Positions 2,210-9,505 of a DNA stretch of 44,621 nucleotides are shown in pieces. The DNA is from an uncultured Bacilli bacterium. Lineage in GTDB: Bacteria; Bacillota_I; Bacilli_A; RF39; UBA660. Within the stretch, counting starts at the first letter, position 1. Each line of letters opens with the position of its first letter. The stretch covers positions 1 to 44,621 of the forward strand of contig CALVVJ010000003.1 of assembly GCA_944363835.1 (NCBI GenBank). The letters run 5' to 3'. The position numbers and the translations under genes are program-made. The notes beneath the pieces are model-generated. The model saw only the letters and a list, made by a program, of their open reading frames with translations, was not told where the DNA came from and ran no database searches.

Positions 2210-4754
2210 CCTTTTTAATCTTTTCTTTTAATTCAAATAGATAATTAAGTGCTGCAATTGGGGTCATATTCATAATATCTATTTTCTCTATTTCCTTTTT
2301 TATTATATCATCTTTTGGCTTTTCTTGAAAGAAATCCATACTAAGTTGTACTCTTTCTTCCGGATTCTTTTTCTTAGCATTAGTTTCATATTCATTTAGT
2401 ATTTCACTAGCTCTTTTAAGTAATTCCTCTGGCATTTTTGCAAGCCTTGCCACATGAATCCCATAACTTTTATCGACAGCCCCACTTTTAACTTTATGCA
2501 AAAATGTTATAGTATCACCATTATCTACTGCACTAACATGGACATTTTTAATATTTTTAAACTTCTTATCTAACCTAGTAAGTTCATGATAATGTGTCGA
2601 AAACAAAGTATAAGCTTTAATATTTTCACTAATGTATTCTAGTATTGCTTGGGCCAAACTCATTCCATCATAAGTTGCTGTTCCTCTTCCTAATTCATCA
2701 AACAATATCAAAGAATTGCTTGTTGCATTGCATATTGCATTTCTAGCTTCCTTCATTTCCACCATAAAAGTTGATTCACCACTAACTAAATCATCACTAG
2801 CTCCAATTCTAGTAAAAATTTTATCTACAATAGGCAAATTAGCACTAGCCGCCGGCACAAAAGAACCAATCTGTGCCATTATAACAATAATCGCCAGTTG
2901 GCGCATATAAGTTGACTTACCACTCATATTAGGCCCTGTAATAAGTAAGGTATTAATTCCATTTTCCATTACACAATCATTAGGAACATATTCTTCTTTA
3001 CTGACAATTTCCACAACTGGATGTCTACCATCTTTTATATTGATAATTCCATCATCATTTATCGTTGGCTTGACAAAATTATATTCTTCGCTACAAACCG
3101 CTAAAGAAAGCATACAATCGATTTCACTCAAAGCATCAGCAGTTTTATTTAAACTAGGAACTTCTAACTTAATTTTATTCCTAATTTCACAAAACAAATT
3201 ATATTCTAAATCGATAATATTTTCTTCTGCATTCAAAATAAGTGACTCTTTTTCTTTTAATTCTGGAGAAATATATCTCTCACAATTAGTTAAAGTTTGT
3301 TTACGGTACCAATTAAACTCATCTTTAACTTGATCTTTACTTCCATTTGGTACTTCAATATAATAACCAAAAACTTTATTAAATCCTACTTTTAAATTTT
3401 TAATTCCTGTTTGTTCCTTTACTTTAGCTTCAAAGCTTGCCACAAAATCTTTACCACCACTACGAATACTTCTAAGTTCATCTAACTCTTCATTATAACC
3501 AGTTTTAATAATATACCCTTCCCTTACACTAATCGGTGGGTCTTCACTAATTGCTTTATCTAATAAATTAAAAACTTCACTGTGTGTAGCAAACTCATAA
3601 TCAAAGTCTAACTTAGCAATTATTTCTTTTATCTTTGGTAATACTGCTAAACTATTTTTAAGTTGTAATAAATCCCTTGCATTTAAACTACCATTAATAA
3701 CTTTACCAGATAATCTTTCAATATCATAAACTTCATACAATAAATTTCTCAGTTCATCTTTTAATAAAAATTCATTATTTAATTTTTCAATCTTAGCATA
3801 TCTTTCTAACAAAATATCCTTATTCTTTAAAGGATTCAATATCCAACTTTTAAGTTTTCTACTTCCCATAGCAGTCTTACATTTATCAAGTAACCAAACT
3901 AAAGAATATGTTCTTTCTTTTAACCTAATAGTTTCTACTAGCTCTAAATTTCTAACTGTATGAACATCCATTTCCACATAATCATTTTTCTTAATTATCT
4001 CCAAATGATTAATATGACTCAAATCTTTTAATTGTCTTACACTTAAATAATAAAATAGATGTTCTACTCCACTACGTACTCTAACATCCAAAATTGTACT
4101 TAGAAACTCTGTATATTTATCCGTTAAAAACTCACTATTAATTGTTACTTCAATATTATAAGTATTCTTAAGTAAATCTATTAAAGCAGTATTAAGATTA
4201 TCTAACAAGACTACTTCTTTAATATTATAATTTAGTATTTCATTTAATAAAGTATCCATATTATTAGGAATACTCAAACTAGCCAAATAACTAGTTGAAA
4301 TATCCAAAATAGTTATATTAATTATATCTTGAAAGAACAATACACTAGCAATATAAGATGAATCTCTTTCATTAAGTAAGTCATTATCAGCAATAGTCCC
4401 TTTACTTATGACATCGACAATTCCTCTTTTAACCATTCTATTTCCTGTTGTTTTTGGATCCTCTAACTGTTCACATATTGCTACTCTATATCCTTTATTA
4501 ACTAATTTTTCAATATAAGTTTTCACATTATTATGTGGAACACCACACATTGGAACCCTCTCTTCTAAACCTGCAACTCGGCCTGTAAGAGTAAGTTCTA
4601 ATTCTCTTGATGCAATTAAAGCATCATCAAAAAACATTTCATAAAAGTCCCCTAAGCGATAAAAGACAAGTTCTTCTGAATACTTATCCTTAATTTCCAT
4701 ATATTGAGCCATCATTGGACTTAATTTATTTCTATCAACTTCACTACGTTTCAT
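2202..4754 (-). CDS. mutS: DNA mismatch repair protein MutS
   Basis: GDFYEMF mismatch-binding motif, GPNMSGKST Walker A, STFMVE, DELGRGT, SYGIHVA. Confidence 0.98.
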   Translation of the reverse strand: MKRSEVDRNKLSPMMAQYMEIKDKYSEELVFYRLGDFYEMFFDDALIASRELELTLTGRVAGLEERVPMCGVPHNNVKTYIEKLVNKGYRVAICEQLEDPKTTGNRMVKRGIVDVISKGTIADNDLLNERDSSYIASVLFFQDIINITILDISTSYLASLSIPNNMDTLLNEILNYNIKEVVLLDNLNTALIDLLKNTYNIEVTINSEFLTDKYTEFLSTILDVRVRSGVEHLFYYLSVRQLKDLSHINHLEIIKKNDYVEMDVHTVRNLELVETIRLKERTYSLVWLLDKCKTAMGSRKLKSWILNPLKNKDILLERYAKIEKLNNEFLLKDELRNLLYEVYDIERLSGKVINGSLNARDLLQLKNSLAVLPKIKEIIAKLDFDYEFATHSEVFNLLDKAISEDPPISVREGYIIKTGYNEELDELRSIRSGGKDFVASFEAKVKEQTGIKNLKVGFNKVFGYYIEVPNGSKDQVKDEFNWYRKQTLTNCERYISPELKEKESLILNAEENIIDLEYNLFCEIRNKIKLEVPSLNKTADALSEIDCMLSLAVCSEEYNFVKPTINDDGIINIKDGRHPVVEIVSKEEYVPNDCVMENGINTLLITGPNMSGKSTYMRQLAIIVIMAQIGSFVPAASANLPIVDKIFTRIGASDDLVSGESTFMVEMKEARNAICNATSNSLILFDELGRGTATYDGMSLAQAILEYISENIKAYTLFSTHYHELTRLDKKFKNIKNVHVSAVDNGDTITFLHKVKSGAVDKSYGIHVARLAKMPEELLKRASEILNEYETNAKKKNPEERVQLSMDFFQEKPKDDIIKKEIEKIDIMNMTPIAALNYLFELKEKIKKGE

Positions 4755-4796: not shown

Positions 4797-6497
4797 TTAT
4801 TTTAACAAATTTTTCCTTCTAGGCAAGATAAATTCTAATCTAGCATAATTAATTCCTGTATCAGGAATATCAACTTCAATAAGTTCATTAGTAACAGTTA
4901 CCGTAATAACTTGTTTATCTTTTGTTATATCTATCTCAACTAATTCCTGAGTTATTTGATACCCCAAACTAGCCTTTGTTTCTTTTAAATAATACTTTCC
5001 TAAATCCAAATTATCTATTACTATTTTCCCCTCAGAATTAGTTTCCTTTTTAGTAACTTCTTCCATCTTATCATTATATAAAGTAAATTCTGTATTTTCT
5101 AAAGGCTCATTATTACTATTAACCTTTAATATTTCGATACTACCTTTTTCTTTTTTATTAACTAATTTAATTGTTACTGGTTTAATATTATTATCTTCAT
5201 CTAACTCTAAATCTATTTTATATTCTGTATCATCCAATATATAGCCATCTAAAGTAGCTAGTTCTTTCAAAATATATTTTCCCCTAATTAAATTTTCAAA
5301 AGTTATTCTGCCTTCCTCATCACTTACTTGAATATCTACTAAAGTTCCATCTAAATTATATAAACCAATTGTAACTCCAGGTAAAACACTATCATTTTCA
5401 TCAACTTTTAACACCTCTATTTTCCCAACCACTGGATAGTTAGCAAATTCAATTACTATTTCTTTTTCTTTGTCTACTTCAAAATATACTTCAGTTTCAT
5501 TTATTACATATCCAGGAATAGTTTGTTCCTTCACTTCGACAATTTTATATGTTCCTTTACCAAATATATAATCAGTTTCTAAAATTCCCTCTTCATTAGT
5601 TTCTCCCTCAAAAACTAATTCATTAGTATCACTATTATATATTTGAAATTTTATTCCCGCTATTTTAAGCATTTCATTACTAATAGCATCAACTTTTAAA
5701 AGTTTTATTTTCGCACCAACTACATTGATTGTAATTGGTACTTCAACATCATCAATATTACCCGCACATAAAACATTTTGACTATTGCCATCCGCATAAA
5801 CTATCGGCATATCATTAAAATTATTACTTACTTTTTTTAGTGTTACACTCTTGCTTCCAACTACATCACCAGTAACTACTAGTTCATTACCATTAATTTT
5901 TATATTATCATCTACTACTTCATAATTGCTTAAACAATCATTTTCATCTTTAAAACTTTTTGTTTCTCCTAACATAACTTCGATTTTATCAAATTTTGGT
6001 GTAATATAATGCTCATTTACTAAACTTTCTATTTCTTCAATTTCTAAAGCATAAAGTGTTAAATCATTTTCTCCTCCAAGCGTCTTAGTAAAATAAAACT
6101 GGGCATCCGGTTCAACTTCTCGCCAAATCATCATTTGAGTAATATAATACCAATAATCTTCTGTATGATTTTCATAGCCATAACCATAATAAGCAATCAA
6201 AGAAATTTTCTTCCATACTTCGTCACTTATATTTAAAATATCAGCATAATCACTAGTATAACTTGTATACGTATAATTATCGATTAAAGCTACAAATGGC
6301 TCTACACAATAAACCGCTTTGTTATCACTAGCTCGCCTTATAAAACCTCCTTGCTTAACAGTCTCCTTACCACTACTATCTATTTTTCTAATAAACATGC
6401 CAGGTATTTTATCACCGACATAAATTTTCTCCGTCGCCGCATCAACACTTATTACCCCTAAGAAAAAAACTACTAAAATCAATAATTTTTTTAACAT
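4797..6497 (-). CDS. Surface adhesin with Cys-Gln thioester domain and SpaA/Cna-B-like repeats
   Basis: Signal peptide; YCVEP and TQMMIW thioester-domain motifs; three KVD...G.Y.L.E...GY repeats; C-terminal IPDTG; start placed at MLKK after a GAGG RBS. Confidence 0.85.
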   Translation of the reverse strand: MLKKLLILVVFFLGVISVDAATEKIYVGDKIPGMFIRKIDSSGKETVKQGGFIRRASDNKAVYCVEPFVALIDNYTYTSYTSDYADILNISDEVWKKISLIAYYGYGYENHTEDYWYYITQMMIWREVEPDAQFYFTKTLGGENDLTLYALEIEEIESLVNEHYITPKFDKIEVMLGETKSFKDENDCLSNYEVVDDNIKINGNELVVTGDVVGSKSVTLKKVSNNFNDMPIVYADGNSQNVLCAGNIDDVEVPITINVVGAKIKLLKVDAISNEMLKIAGIKFQIYNSDTNELVFEGETNEEGILETDYIFGKGTYKIVEVKEQTIPGYVINETEVYFEVDKEKEIVIEFANYPVVGKIEVLKVDENDSVLPGVTIGLYNLDGTLVDIQVSDEEGRITFENLIRGKYILKELATLDGYILDDTEYKIDLELDEDNNIKPVTIKLVNKKEKGSIEILKVNSNNEPLENTEFTLYNDKMEEVTKKETNSEGKIVIDNLDLGKYYLKETKASLGYQITQELVEIDITKDKQVITVTVTNELIEVDIPDTGINYARLEFILPRRKNLLK

Positions 6498-6617
6498 AAA
6501 TCCTCTCCTCAATTATAAATATACTAAATACTACAATAAAATCACATAATTATATTTACCTCCTTTCACTTATATATATCTGTAAAAAAAGTCAATTTCC
6601 TTTTTTTTCATAAAAAA

Positions 6618-6666: not shown

Positions 6667-7230
6667 TTATAACATCATTATCTGCTTTTTAGATAATTCT
6701 GTTATCTTAGAAATTAAATCTATTGCTATGCCATTTTCTTTCATCTTTTTAGCATTTTCTCGATTACTTTGTTCAATACCTTCAGCACGACCCAAAGTTT
6801 GTCCTTCTTCTAATGCTTCTTCTCTTATGGCATTCTTGATAAATTCATTTTCCATTTCCACATCATAATCTAAATATATCTTTCCATTCTCTAAATCATT
6901 CCGTGTCTTTTCTGCTTTCATTAATATCTCGTCTCCTTCTATAAATTTTTCTATTTCTTCTTTACTTTCTCTACTCATTAGTAGATATAATAATCTCTTG
7001 CTTTGTTTACTTATTGTAACTTTACTATACCAAAGTTCTTTTATCTTTTCAAGATTAAATTCTAAATACGCTAAATGTCCAGTTAATCTTCTTCCTACTT
7101 CATTTATTATCTTATATTCACTTTCACCAAGATTACATCTCATATCTCTACGATTATAAGCATTGATAAACACTAATATTACCTTCTTACCATTAAATTC
7201 AATTACTCCATCTTTATTAGTATAAAACAT
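6667..7230 (-). pseudogene. C-terminal part of an Rpn/PD-(D/E)XK nuclease-family protein
   Basis: Typical Rpn tail EEG..GRAEGIEQ...AKKMKENG...I.KITEL; the N-terminal part lies at ~8550-8790. Confidence 0.75.
7080..7230. repeat. 151-bp direct repeat, copy A
   Basis: Matches 8398-8548 with 4 substitutions by manual alignment. Confidence 0.95.
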
Positions 7231-7309
7231 TTTATTAAATATATGATTGGAAAGCTATTATAAAATCAATTTAGATGCTAAATTATCAACATTTAGTCTT
7301 AAAAACATA

Positions 7310-7335
7310 AAAACCTAGTCGTAAAAACTAGGATT
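7310..7335 (-). terminator. Intrinsic terminator after the downstream AbiF RNA copy
   Basis: Minus strand aatcctagt-ttttacg-actaggttttt. Confidence 0.75.
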
Positions 7336-7337
7336 TG

Positions 7338-7376
7338 AATGACTTAGAGCTTCTAAAGTTTTCTAAGCACCACTCA
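7338..7376 (-). ncRNA. AbiF-associated RNA hairpin, downstream copy (candidate antitoxin)
   Basis: 32/39 identical to 8292-8330 with two compensatory base-pair changes; TATAAT at 7382-7387 at the same spacing as in the upstream copy. Confidence 0.7.
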
Positions 7377-7397
7377 TTAATATTATATTATAAACAT

Positions 7398-8273
7398 TTA
7401 AATATATACATTAGGATAACCCATAATTCTTAAAATACTTTTAATGTCTATAGAATTTAACTTATTATCTAACTTATTTATTTCTTTTTCTATTGATTTT
7501 ACTAAACTATTATATTGCCTTTTATCTAAAATGATTTGCATCGCTTTAATCATCATGTATAAATTCGTAAGATTATCCTTAGCTACATAATTAGCATCAA
7601 TCTCTTTAAATTTTAAAGTATATTTATCTCTATAACAAAATAGGCGATCATTATGAGCACAAATATTCCTAATATTAGTTAAACATCTTAATATTTGTTT
7701 TAACAATACATCTGATATTTTAAATTTCTTTGCTATTATTTGCCTATCACTTTGTTTTAACAAACCATAATAGCTACTAATAACTCCAAATGTTAATATT
7801 TTAGTTAAAACAAACGGTGGAATAAAACCATAATTATCTTTATAATGAGTAATTGCAAGATGAATACCGTAATTATGATTAATGACCTCATTTATTTTAT
7901 CAATCAATCTCTTTCTAACAATTAAGTTAGCCTTACTATCTAAGTTATTAATATTTAAATAAGCCTTTATACCATAAACATTAGAAATATGATTTGATAT
8001 CAAAGATTTAATAAAAGATTCAACTTCTAAAGCATATTTTAACATTATTAATTTCAAGTTTTTATCAAAATCATATAAAGCATATATTTCTTCAAAAGAA
8101 ACATTGTGAAAATAATTATTATTAGAATCCTTAAAATTATATTTATAACTATTAACTATAGAATAATAAGTATATTTTTCTAATTTTTTCAAAGCAAATT
8201 TTCTATTTTTAATAATAACGTTCTTGGTTTCTAAATAATTTAATAATCCTTCATCTGTTTTATATTGCTTCAT
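7398..8273 (-). CDS. Abi_2/AbiF-family HEPN ribonuclease (abortive infection toxin)
   Basis: YY.I..Y, LYDFD..L...E motifs, P...L...TFG..S..Y, HEPN RxxxxH motif RNICAH. Confidence 0.9.
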   Translation of the reverse strand: MKQYKTDEGLLNYLETKNVIIKNRKFALKKLEKYTYYSIVNSYKYNFKDSNNNYFHNVSFEEIYALYDFDKNLKLIMLKYALEVESFIKSLISNHISNVYGIKAYLNINNLDSKANLIVRKRLIDKINEVINHNYGIHLAITHYKDNYGFIPPFVLTKILTFGVISSYYGLLKQSDRQIIAKKFKISDVLLKQILRCLTNIRNICAHNDRLFCYRDKYTLKFKEIDANYVAKDNLTNLYMMIKAMQIILDKRQYNSLVKSIEKEINKLDNKLNSIDIKSILRIMGYPNVYI

Positions 8274-8291
8274 ATTCCCCCTGAAATTAAA

Positions 8292-8330
8292 AATGACCTA
8301 GGACTTCAAAAGTTTCCTAGGCACTACTCA
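8292..8330 (-). ncRNA. AbiF-associated RNA hairpin, upstream copy (candidate antitoxin)
   Basis: UGAGUAGUGCCUAGGAAACUUUUGAAGUCCUAGGUCAUU between the promoter and the abi start, followed by a U tract. Confidence 0.75.
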
Positions 8331-8335
8331 ATGAA

Positions 8336-8364
8336 ACTATATCAGATATCAATGATGTTGTCAA
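8336..8364 (-). promoter_or_regulatory. Sigma-A promoter for the AbiF RNA and toxin
   Basis: TTGACA-17 nt-TATAGT. Confidence 0.8.
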
Positions 8365-8397
8365 TTGTTTTTCAAGCTTAAATGCTAAATATCTGTG

Positions 8398-8548
8398 CAG
8401 TTAATCTTCTTCCTACTTCATTTATTATCTTATATTCACTTTCACCAAGATTACATCTCATATCTCTACGACTATAAGCATTGATAAACACCAATATTAC
8501 CTTCTTACCATTAAATTCGATTACTCCATCTTTATTGGTATAAAACAT
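8398..8548. repeat. 151-bp direct repeat, copy B
   Basis: Matches 7080-7230 with 4 substitutions. Confidence 0.95.
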
Positions 8549-8790
8549 AATGTTTAAAATATTATATTACCTACTTCGATTATTACATCACTTCGCATTA
8601 ACCTTTTAATATTACTAACTCTACATCCAAATACTTCATATTCTTTATTACATAATCATATTCCATATGTAATATATCTGCAATTATGCCAGCAACATAA
8701 TACCTAGTAGAATCATCTTTAAAGAAGAATTTAAAACCGACATTTATTGTAAGATACCCGATATCTACACTTGTGCCACAATTATATTTA
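8398..8790 (-). pseudogene. N-terminal remnant of the Rpn/PD-(D/E)XK nuclease-family gene
   Basis: Manual translation: NVGFKFFFKDDSTRYYVAGIIADILHMEYDYVIKNMKYLDVEL, frameshift, MRSDVIIEV, then the repeat. Confidence 0.65.
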
Positions 8791-8862
8791 CCACATTCAC
8801 TTATATATATCTGGAAAAAGAGGCAATTTCCTTTTTTATTGGAAATTTTTTTAATATACTTT

Positions 8863-9400: not shown

Positions 9401-9505
9401 AAACATTTTCTATTGGGATTATTTATTACTCGCACCACCCAGAAGCGAGAAACATTACCTATTGGAATTATTTATTACTCGCACCATCCAGAAGCGAGAA
9501 ACATT
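9401..9505 (-). ncRNA. cptI: CptI-type antitoxin RNA, ~2.1 tandem repeats of 49 nt
   Basis: aaacatt recurs at 9401, 9450 and 9499; each unit has a CUCGC/GCGAG stem whose loop (UGGA or UGGG) pairs with downstream UCCA or CCCA. Confidence 0.9.

Follow-up and report, generated by a model that had tools for sequence, protein, structure and literature searches.

A hairpin RNA on both sides of an AbiF/AbiD-type HEPN gene in an uncultured Bacilli bacterium

What is a short hairpin RNA doing both in front of a toxin gene and behind it? AbiF-type HEPN toxins with RNA antitoxins became understood only in 2025, and Cas13 is held to have arisen from them. The locus that raises the question lies in a 44,621-nucleotide stretch of DNA (positions 1 to 44,621 of contig CALVVJ010000003.1, assembly GCA_944363835.1; "the window" below is that whole stretch) from an uncultured chicken-gut bacterium of the Bacilli. 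Its center is abi, a gene for a HEPN protein, and the abi module is read on the minus strand, from 8364 to 7306, in the order promoter, hairpin, U-run, ribosome site, abi, -10 element, second hairpin, terminator. A preliminary description, made from the letters of the DNA by themselves, had singled out the toxin and its two flanking RNAs and had found the layout unfamiliar. The answer argued for here is that the locus is probably (we would put it at about 0.65) a type III-like RNA-antitoxin/HEPN-toxin abortive-infection module of the AbiD/AbiF kind, in which the antitoxin is encoded twice. Two observations stand at the head of the argument: the RNA on either side of the gene has a genuine structure, with covariation, and the two-sided layout is a conserved architecture, old and common to many genera.

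The toxin gene and its two hairpins

The protein encoded by abi matches Pfam Abi_2 (PF07751) over profile positions 2-183 of 184 (E 3.1e-43; 148.6 bits, the cut-off being 25.6) and the PADLOC AbiD model (1.2e-51); no fitting NCBIfam model was found for it. In an alignment with the solved PbAbiF of a Prevotellaceae bacterium (8vz6; E=2.1e-13) its RNICAH, at residues 202-207, falls on the catalytic RNSCCH, and R202, N203 and H207, which make up the HEPN motif R-(N/H/D)-xxx-H, are invariant among eight relatives. The product of the gene is an AbiF/AbiD-type HEPN protein, as the preliminary description had it; ribonuclease (RNase) toxicity and anti-phage activity are predicted for it.

The two hairpins are 954 nucleotides (nt) apart, with abi in between. 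They are unlike at 7 of 39 positions (6, 11, 15, 23, 28, 29 and 33) and four of these changes form two compensatory pairs, 11/33 (C-G to U-A) and 15/29 (G-C to A-U), all of which had been read correctly from the letters and is confirmed by coordinates and alignment. The upstream copy, with a predicted fold of -11.7 kcal/mol (z -2.7), ends 15 nt ahead of the abi ATG, and this placement directly upstream of an Abi_2 gene is also found at 22 loci of relatives. Each copy has its own -10 element at the same distance of 5 nt (TATAGT upstream, TATAAT downstream), again as first described, and behind the downstream copy stands a terminator that is the sole terminator-like site between 7200 and 8600, where 0.1 would be expected by chance. 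(Positions of all features are collected in Table 1.)

The genome holds a second Abi_2 gene (C7:15454-16350; L002, 1931-2860, minus strand) with about 31% identity and an intact RNLCAH motif. Of 151 family genomes, 150 have an Abi_2 gene of the 29-37% identity class, usually a single one; this is unusual for a "defence" gene and suggests that the class is a housekeeping RNase.

A structured RNA with an invariant loop

The consensus fold, drawn from 29 copies, consists of an outer helix (4-5 pairs), an inner helix (7 pairs) and a conserved top of 13 nt, within which three pairs form a mini-helix. When the inner helix and mini-helix of these 29 copies are tested alone, 99.6% of cells are paired, four pairs are changed on both sides and the covariation score is reached by none of 500 shuffles. 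The full 15-pair fold is 96.8% paired in 72 model-aligned copies, with nine pairs changed on both sides, in an alignment that was fitted to the covariance model and so leans towards the structure. The downstream copies taken by themselves (n=21) are 94.7% paired, 8 of their 15 pairs are changed on both sides and again none of 500 shuffles reaches the score. The covariation that had been claimed from the two window copies therefore reappears in all three sets. An invariant loop on covarying stems is the pattern expected of a protein-bound RNA.

The preliminary description took this RNA to be the upstream motif already known from abiF genes, and that identification did not survive. The Rfam abiF model (RF03085), searched at E<=10, has no match in the window between 6000 and 10000, in the whole 1.18-Mb genome or in 20 hairpin-bearing loci of relatives, and the same model does recover the known site in phage phiC2, which served as control, at 37.6 bits (the membership threshold being 37 bits). 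A search of 151 genomes of the phylum gave no match, but the control genomes went unmatched in it too, and it carries no information. The shape of the abiF consensus is also different, and the identity of the hairpin with Rfam abiF RNA was rejected. The hairpin is instead a candidate new RNA family, to be proposed to Rfam, where a model of it would help annotators to recognize modules of this kind and the solo relics of them.

Conservation of the two-sided layout

A degenerate hairpin pattern matches 19 of 100 related genomes, all of one family, and its reversed control matches none. A covariance model, R1, built from copies of two genera, scores the two window copies at 64.8 bits (upstream) and 66.1 bits (downstream) and finds the hairpin in 36 of 151 genomes, one for each of 151 genera of the family; in 137 genomes drawn from 25 further families of the class it has no match. 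Among the genomes searched, then, the hairpin is known only from this bacterial family and from some phages.

Counting loci through their RNA favours those that have it, and the layout was therefore also counted independently, by a protein search of the same 151 family genomes. Between them, 12 other genomes have 13 window-type abi loci (46-89% identity) of full or almost full length, one with a frameshifted gene, and R1 matches flank every one of the 13 on both sides, in a comparison for which the model had been built from other genera. A fourteenth window-type gene (G196), shortened to 187 codons, is accompanied by the upstream copy alone. In the biased set, fetched via the RNA, 22 of the 23 full-length abi genes are flanked on both sides, G009 being the exception. 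Tandem hairpin units are rare extras (L070, L061), and the surroundings of the abi module vary between genomes.

These counts bear on two remarks in the preliminary description. Its suggestion that the layout might represent an early stage of repeat duplication is not upheld, the arrangement being old and common to many genera. The survey of Abi_2 loci for downstream copies that it had proposed came out positive in this family and negative elsewhere: at 12 Abi_2 loci on phages and plasmids of other phyla, and in phiC2, no leader copy lies downstream of the gene. In that survey the sole score between upstream and downstream flanks to exceed the shuffled maximum is a 20-nt match in the Streptococcus pneumoniae phage IPP16, and sub-threshold abiF matches occur in two loci, upstream only.

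Two loci with other kinds of repetition are on record. In the divergent module L047 (G030:C15) a unit of about 165 nt, consisting of promoter, hairpin and a further ~100 nt, is present three times (3966-4010, 5254-5298 and 6353-6397): before abi, after abi and again 1.1 kb downstream. The phage IPP16 locus (L076) has a repeated element on both sides of its Abi_2 gene (678-766 and 1859-1974) that shares the 20-nt word; the element has a weak match to a Streptococcus pyogenes small-RNA family (~29-35 bits, under the cut-off) and its sequence is unrelated to the window hairpin.

The two copies are wired differently

The copies before and after the gene differ consistently in what surrounds them. 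A -35 hexamer with at least 5 of 6 matches precedes 17 of 22 upstream copies and 1 of 21 downstream copies. A -10 hexamer of the same quality is present at 15 of the 22 upstream copies, most of them TG-extended, and at 20 of the 21 downstream copies, where 13 are perfect and the gap to the hairpin is exactly 5 nt in all 20; at random positions a -10 of this quality was scored in 726 of 5000 trials. A U-run directly follows the hairpin in 21 of 22 upstream copies as against 4 of 21 downstream copies. In a crude scan a separate terminator lies within 70 nt of 19 of 21 downstream copies and 7 of 22 upstream copies, the latter calls being 6-8-bp stems in AT-rich DNA and probably false. The claim that the downstream copy has its own -10 and its own terminator thus extends from the window to the loci of its relatives. 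The terminators behind downstream copies differ in sequence between clades, and at each of the 21 loci the two copies have a clade-specific outer helix in common while their inner stems are unlike; the common outer helix fits two RNAs that track one protein partner, and gene conversion could look alike.

Could the downstream hairpin be simply a 3'-untranslated-region (3'-UTR) element of the abi mRNA, serving stability, processing or the closing of the mRNA through a toxin dimer held at both ends, and no separate gene? No terminator separates the downstream copy from the abi stop codon, and any full-length mRNA must therefore carry it; the copy is without a -35; and the AbiF dimer binds two RNAs (PMC12373285). 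What an RNA-level role leaves unexplained is the -10 element, kept at its exact distance in 20 of 21 loci amid diverged sequence, and phages hold downstream-type copies without any abi mRNA. We consider this explanation unlikely as an exclusive one; a role in the UTR and a role as a separate gene are compatible.

Solo hairpins, toxin loss and the origin of the second copy

Many copies of the hairpin stand without a toxin gene. Three such solos (G029, G037 and G191) each combine part of an upstream copy with part of a downstream copy, and the crossover point is different in every one: in G029 the promoter and hairpin come from an upstream copy, the tail and terminator from a downstream copy, and in G037 the crossover lies in the loop and leaves a mismatched stem. 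Because the three solos are chimeras, it follows that the toxin gene has been deleted by recombination between its flanking repeats, with an entire RNA gene remaining.

This evidence of recombination between the copies invites the reading that they act chiefly as DNA recombination sites, which make abi an exchangeable cassette, with the RNA fold secondary. The differing surroundings of the module from genome to genome would suit such a role, as would the further 172-nt direct repeat that brackets the module in the window. We nevertheless judge it very improbable. All copies are oriented as abi is, at a fixed distance from a promoter element, and an invariant loop on covarying stems is an RNA-level pattern; the crossover points vary, as in ordinary homologous recombination; and no recombinase was seen in the two neighboring open reading frames (ORFs), for which Pfam and PADLOC name nothing and NCBIfam names an Rpn-family fragment and a CptIN toxin.

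The genome of the window has a solo hairpin as well (C5:5334-5378; L001, 2335-2379, minus strand), situated between two unrelated genes and provided with its own -35 and -10 and a weak terminator. Its outer helix is of the type of the abi clade with 50-56% identity, unlike that of the window gene.

How did a second copy come to lie behind the gene? Plausibly, leader and gene were duplicated in tandem and the second gene was later lost. Behind the downstream copy of G232 stand a ribosome site and the opening codons of another abi gene, which then breaks off. In the clade with 45-49% identity the two copies are only 2-6 positions apart and both have the U-run. Tandem abi genes are generally common (PMC12373285), and orphan leaders followed by abi stumps exist (the third copy of G016, and G013). 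These same facts would be met if the downstream copy were still nothing other than the functionless leftover leader of a lost tandem abi gene, which seems to us distinctly unlikely: 17 of 21 downstream copies are without -35 and U-run and have instead a perfect -10 at a fixed 5 nt and a terminator whose sequence varies between clades; compensatory changes uphold the fold in the downstream copies alone; and the downstream copy is present at all of the protein-defined loci, across genera. A leftover leader may thus describe the origin of the downstream copy and not its present state; in the clade of the window that copy has since gained its own -10 and terminator. The preliminary description had itself raised the leader of a deleted second abi gene as an alternative, and such a case is seen in one distant clade, that of G232, and not in the window's clade.

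Copies of the RNA in phages

Two scans of viral contigs with the pattern yielded 13 and 41 matches, which by our own estimate is about what chance would give in collections of that size, and matches were kept only if the structure model confirmed them. Seven loci of the first scan were so confirmed, at 39-61 bits; the second scan gave 10 model matches, 5 of them repeats of first-scan loci and 5 new and weaker, for a total of 12 distinct contigs. A search of the viral contigs with the window protein gave no match. Five viral records were searched whole, four of them 90-100% complete and one with terminal repeats: each has one R1 copy and none (0/5) has a PF07751 match.

The neighborhoods of these copies include phage genes, namely endolysin and dUTPase in L094 and exonucleases in L092 and L098. 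In three related contigs with 38-42% G+C (L093, L101 and L104) the hairpin lies between the gene for the major tail protein (phrog_2645) and phrog_4282, has CCCCGG/CCGGGG stems with the same loop, and has no Abi_2 match within 1.5 kb. The copies in L094 and L097 are 1 of 39 positions away from bacterial downstream copies, those of G215/G155 and of G131, which suggests that phages captured the antitoxin RNA from bacteria. All five of the records searched whole, in other words, have the RNA and not the toxin, as a phage-borne antitoxin mimic would; the function in escape is putative, and genomes with the RNA only suggest an RNA-decoy counter-defence against this class of toxin.

Comparison with known RNA-antitoxin systems

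The closest parallel is AbiF(Cd)/RCd22 of phage phi027 in Clostridioides difficile, whose toxin has about 29% protein identity with the window protein. It too (PMC12373285) combines an Abi_2 HEPN toxin, with R-phi-xxx-H at the same residues (R202, H207), with a structured RNA that starts at a promoter ahead of the gene and has a terminator-like element behind it; in cis this leader stops most transcripts short of the toxin gene, and in trans it binds and neutralizes the toxin. RCd22 consists of two tandem Rfam abiF motifs, both upstream, whereas the window has one hairpin on each side of the gene, of another sequence family. In phiC2 there is one abiF match, also upstream, and no repeat shared between upstream and downstream flanks. 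In PbAbiF the homodimer binds two copies of a cis-encoded non-coding RNA and its RNase is silenced (PMC12737573, PMC12373285); that protein, solved with its RNA as PbAbiF-AbiFr (PDB 8vz6; Zilberzwige-Tal et al., Cell 2025), is homologous to the window protein, and passages that cite the work have one RNA gene serving both sites. For the lactococcal AbiD1/AbiF/AbiD-like genes, the parts of PMC11381338 and PMC13064643 seen describe a short segment ahead of the gene that has a strong promoter and a terminator, is needed for activity or cloning and is more conserved than the protein, and they do not mention a downstream copy.

The layout of the window module differs from these systems and from the other AbiF systems in the literature examined, which keep the RNA ahead of the gene: here there is a family-wide second copy, and it is differently wired. 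A two-sided layout with unlike promoters and ends, unfamiliar to the preliminary description, was not found in the literature examined, with the proviso that Zilberzwige-Tal et al. (Cell 2025) and its supplements may describe it; the term "abiF" is not in the main text of Weinberg et al. (2017).

Two more distant systems deserve comparison. The window module and type VI CRISPR-Cas13 have in common an effector of the HEPN kind, related to AbiF, and short hairpin repeats in the vicinity of its gene. Unlike Cas13 loci it has no spacers and no array, adaptation genes were not seen, and the effector gene itself stands between two repeats; matches to CRISPR-repeat families are sub-threshold and lie inside the abi coding sequence, with none at the hairpin. 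In type III toxin-antitoxin (TA) systems (ToxIN, CptIN, TenpIN) an RNA antitoxin lies beside a ribonuclease toxin, a terminator sets the ratio of the two, and the antitoxin is made as upstream tandem repeats that the toxin cuts. RNA beside toxin with a terminator-like separator is what the window family has, in the form of hairpin and U-run ahead of the ribosome site (21 of 22), termination being predicted; instead of tandem upstream repeats it has single units on both sides of a HEPN toxin. Phage PhiTE reportedly carries a pseudo-ToxI RNA, a phage copy of the antitoxin RNA, as an escape route.

A proposed mechanism and what weighs against it

How would a doubly encoded antitoxin work? By comparison with C. 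difficile AbiF/RCd22 and PbAbiF, the hairpin would bind the toxin dimer and hold it inactive. Transcription would start at the first hairpin, from a strong promoter, and by analogy the upstream hairpin with its U-run would end most transcripts early, so that much RNA and little toxin is made. The downstream copy would add to the antitoxin, being present at the 3' end of every toxin mRNA and also made from its own -10, independently of toxin transcription. Recombination between the repeats, as the solos show, drops the toxin gene and leaves a complete promoter-RNA-terminator unit, which would allow safe loss of the toxin, and in phages that have the RNA and no toxin it could serve as a decoy.

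The stronger version of this proposal is a conjunction: that the hairpin is a trans-acting antitoxin, that its two-sided placement is adaptive, that the downstream copy is a free-standing small-RNA gene, that the toxin can be dropped with immunity kept, and that downstream-type RNA was captured by phages as a decoy. Taken together we hold these only tentatively, and rather doubt that all are right. If they are, the downstream small-RNA gene would keep cells protected whatever toxin transcription does, the phage copies would be the first antitoxin mimicry known for a system of the AbiF/Cas13 lineage, and the locus would offer a living example of an effector-bound RNA turning into a repeated element around its effector. 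The system lets three questions be asked: how the dose of an antitoxin is set, how a toxin gene can be lost safely, and how an RNA multiplies around its effector.

Several observations weigh against reading the locus as a module with a doubly encoded antitoxin. The blindness of the Rfam abiF model to the hairpin leaves context as the ground for its homology to proven antitoxin RNAs. A two-hexamer promoter scan of the window calls none for the downstream copy. No hairpin RNA accompanies the genome's second Abi_2 gene. An intact abi gene in G009, for a protein of 289 aa, has the upstream copy only, so that the downstream copy cannot be called indispensable. The near-identity of the two copies in the 45-49% clade, where the downstream one keeps its U-run, and the abi codons behind the downstream copy of G232 belong here as well, in that the downstream copy may have begun as the leader of a tandem gene. 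The expression data, finally, consist of contigs only, without starts, ends or strand; RNA-library contigs cover 7336-7376 and 8290-8324 and continue into flanks that are unlike the window, and they come, therefore, from relatives.

The surroundings of the module

Table 1. Features of the abi module and of the direct repeat that brackets it, in the order in which the minus strand is read
Feature	Position in window	Strand	Details
Left arm of 172-nt direct repeat (94% identity)	8394..8565	-	shortened copy of the beginning of the Rpn-like ORF
Promoter of upstream RNA and abi mRNA	8336..8364	-	TTGACA 8364-8359, 17-nt spacer, TG 8344-8343, TATAGT 8341-8336; 11/12 consensus matches plus TG
Upstream hairpin copy, 5' leader of abi	8289..8333	-	39-nt core 8330-8292; U-run 8293-8289; starts 5 nt past TATAGT
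Ribosome-binding site of abi, AGGGGGA	8276..8282	-	read from sequence; similar G-rich site before ATG in relatives
abi gene	7398..8273	-	291-aa Abi_2 / AbiD-F family HEPN protein, RNICAH at residues 202-207; Pfam, PADLOC, alignment to 8vz6
-10 box of downstream copy, TATAAT (perfect)	7382..7387	-	5 nt ahead of RNA; -35 not recognizable
Downstream hairpin copy	7335..7379	-	39-nt core 7376-7338; begins 21 nt past abi stop codon
Intrinsic terminator of downstream RNA and abi transcript	7306..7332	-	strong; stem-loop 7332-7314, T-run after
Right arm of 172-nt direct repeat	7076..7247	-	start of 187-aa Rpn-family fragment ORF 7230-6667

The abi module lies in a small defence island. The 172-nt direct repeat, which brackets the entire module, has a layout that looks like the single-crossover insertion of a circle carrying part of an Rpn-like gene. 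The 187-residue fragment belongs, by a match under the cut-off (TIGR01784, 4.2e-08), to the Rpn family of recombination-promoting nucleases. Outside this repeat lies another pair of direct repeats of ~62 nt (6545-6606 and 8777-8837; 86-93% identity, 2231 nt apart), which follow the stop codons of the CptIN and Rpn-like ORFs and bracket the Rpn-plus-abi segment. An apparent junction from 8830 to 6600 in the contig alignment was considered as a structural variant and rejected, being an alignment effect of this 62-nt repeat.

Next to abi, 600 nt away, is a complete type III TA locus. Its CptIN-family toxin is encoded at 9330-8863 on the minus strand (NCBIfam NF047359, 3.5e-45) and is preceded at 9401-9498 by two tandem 49-nt units of 92% identity with a terminator-like hairpin; RNA-library contigs of 79 and 98 nt span these repeats. 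At least six relatives (L035, L040, L050, L055, L069 and L073) have CptIN homologues adjoining the hairpin RNA.

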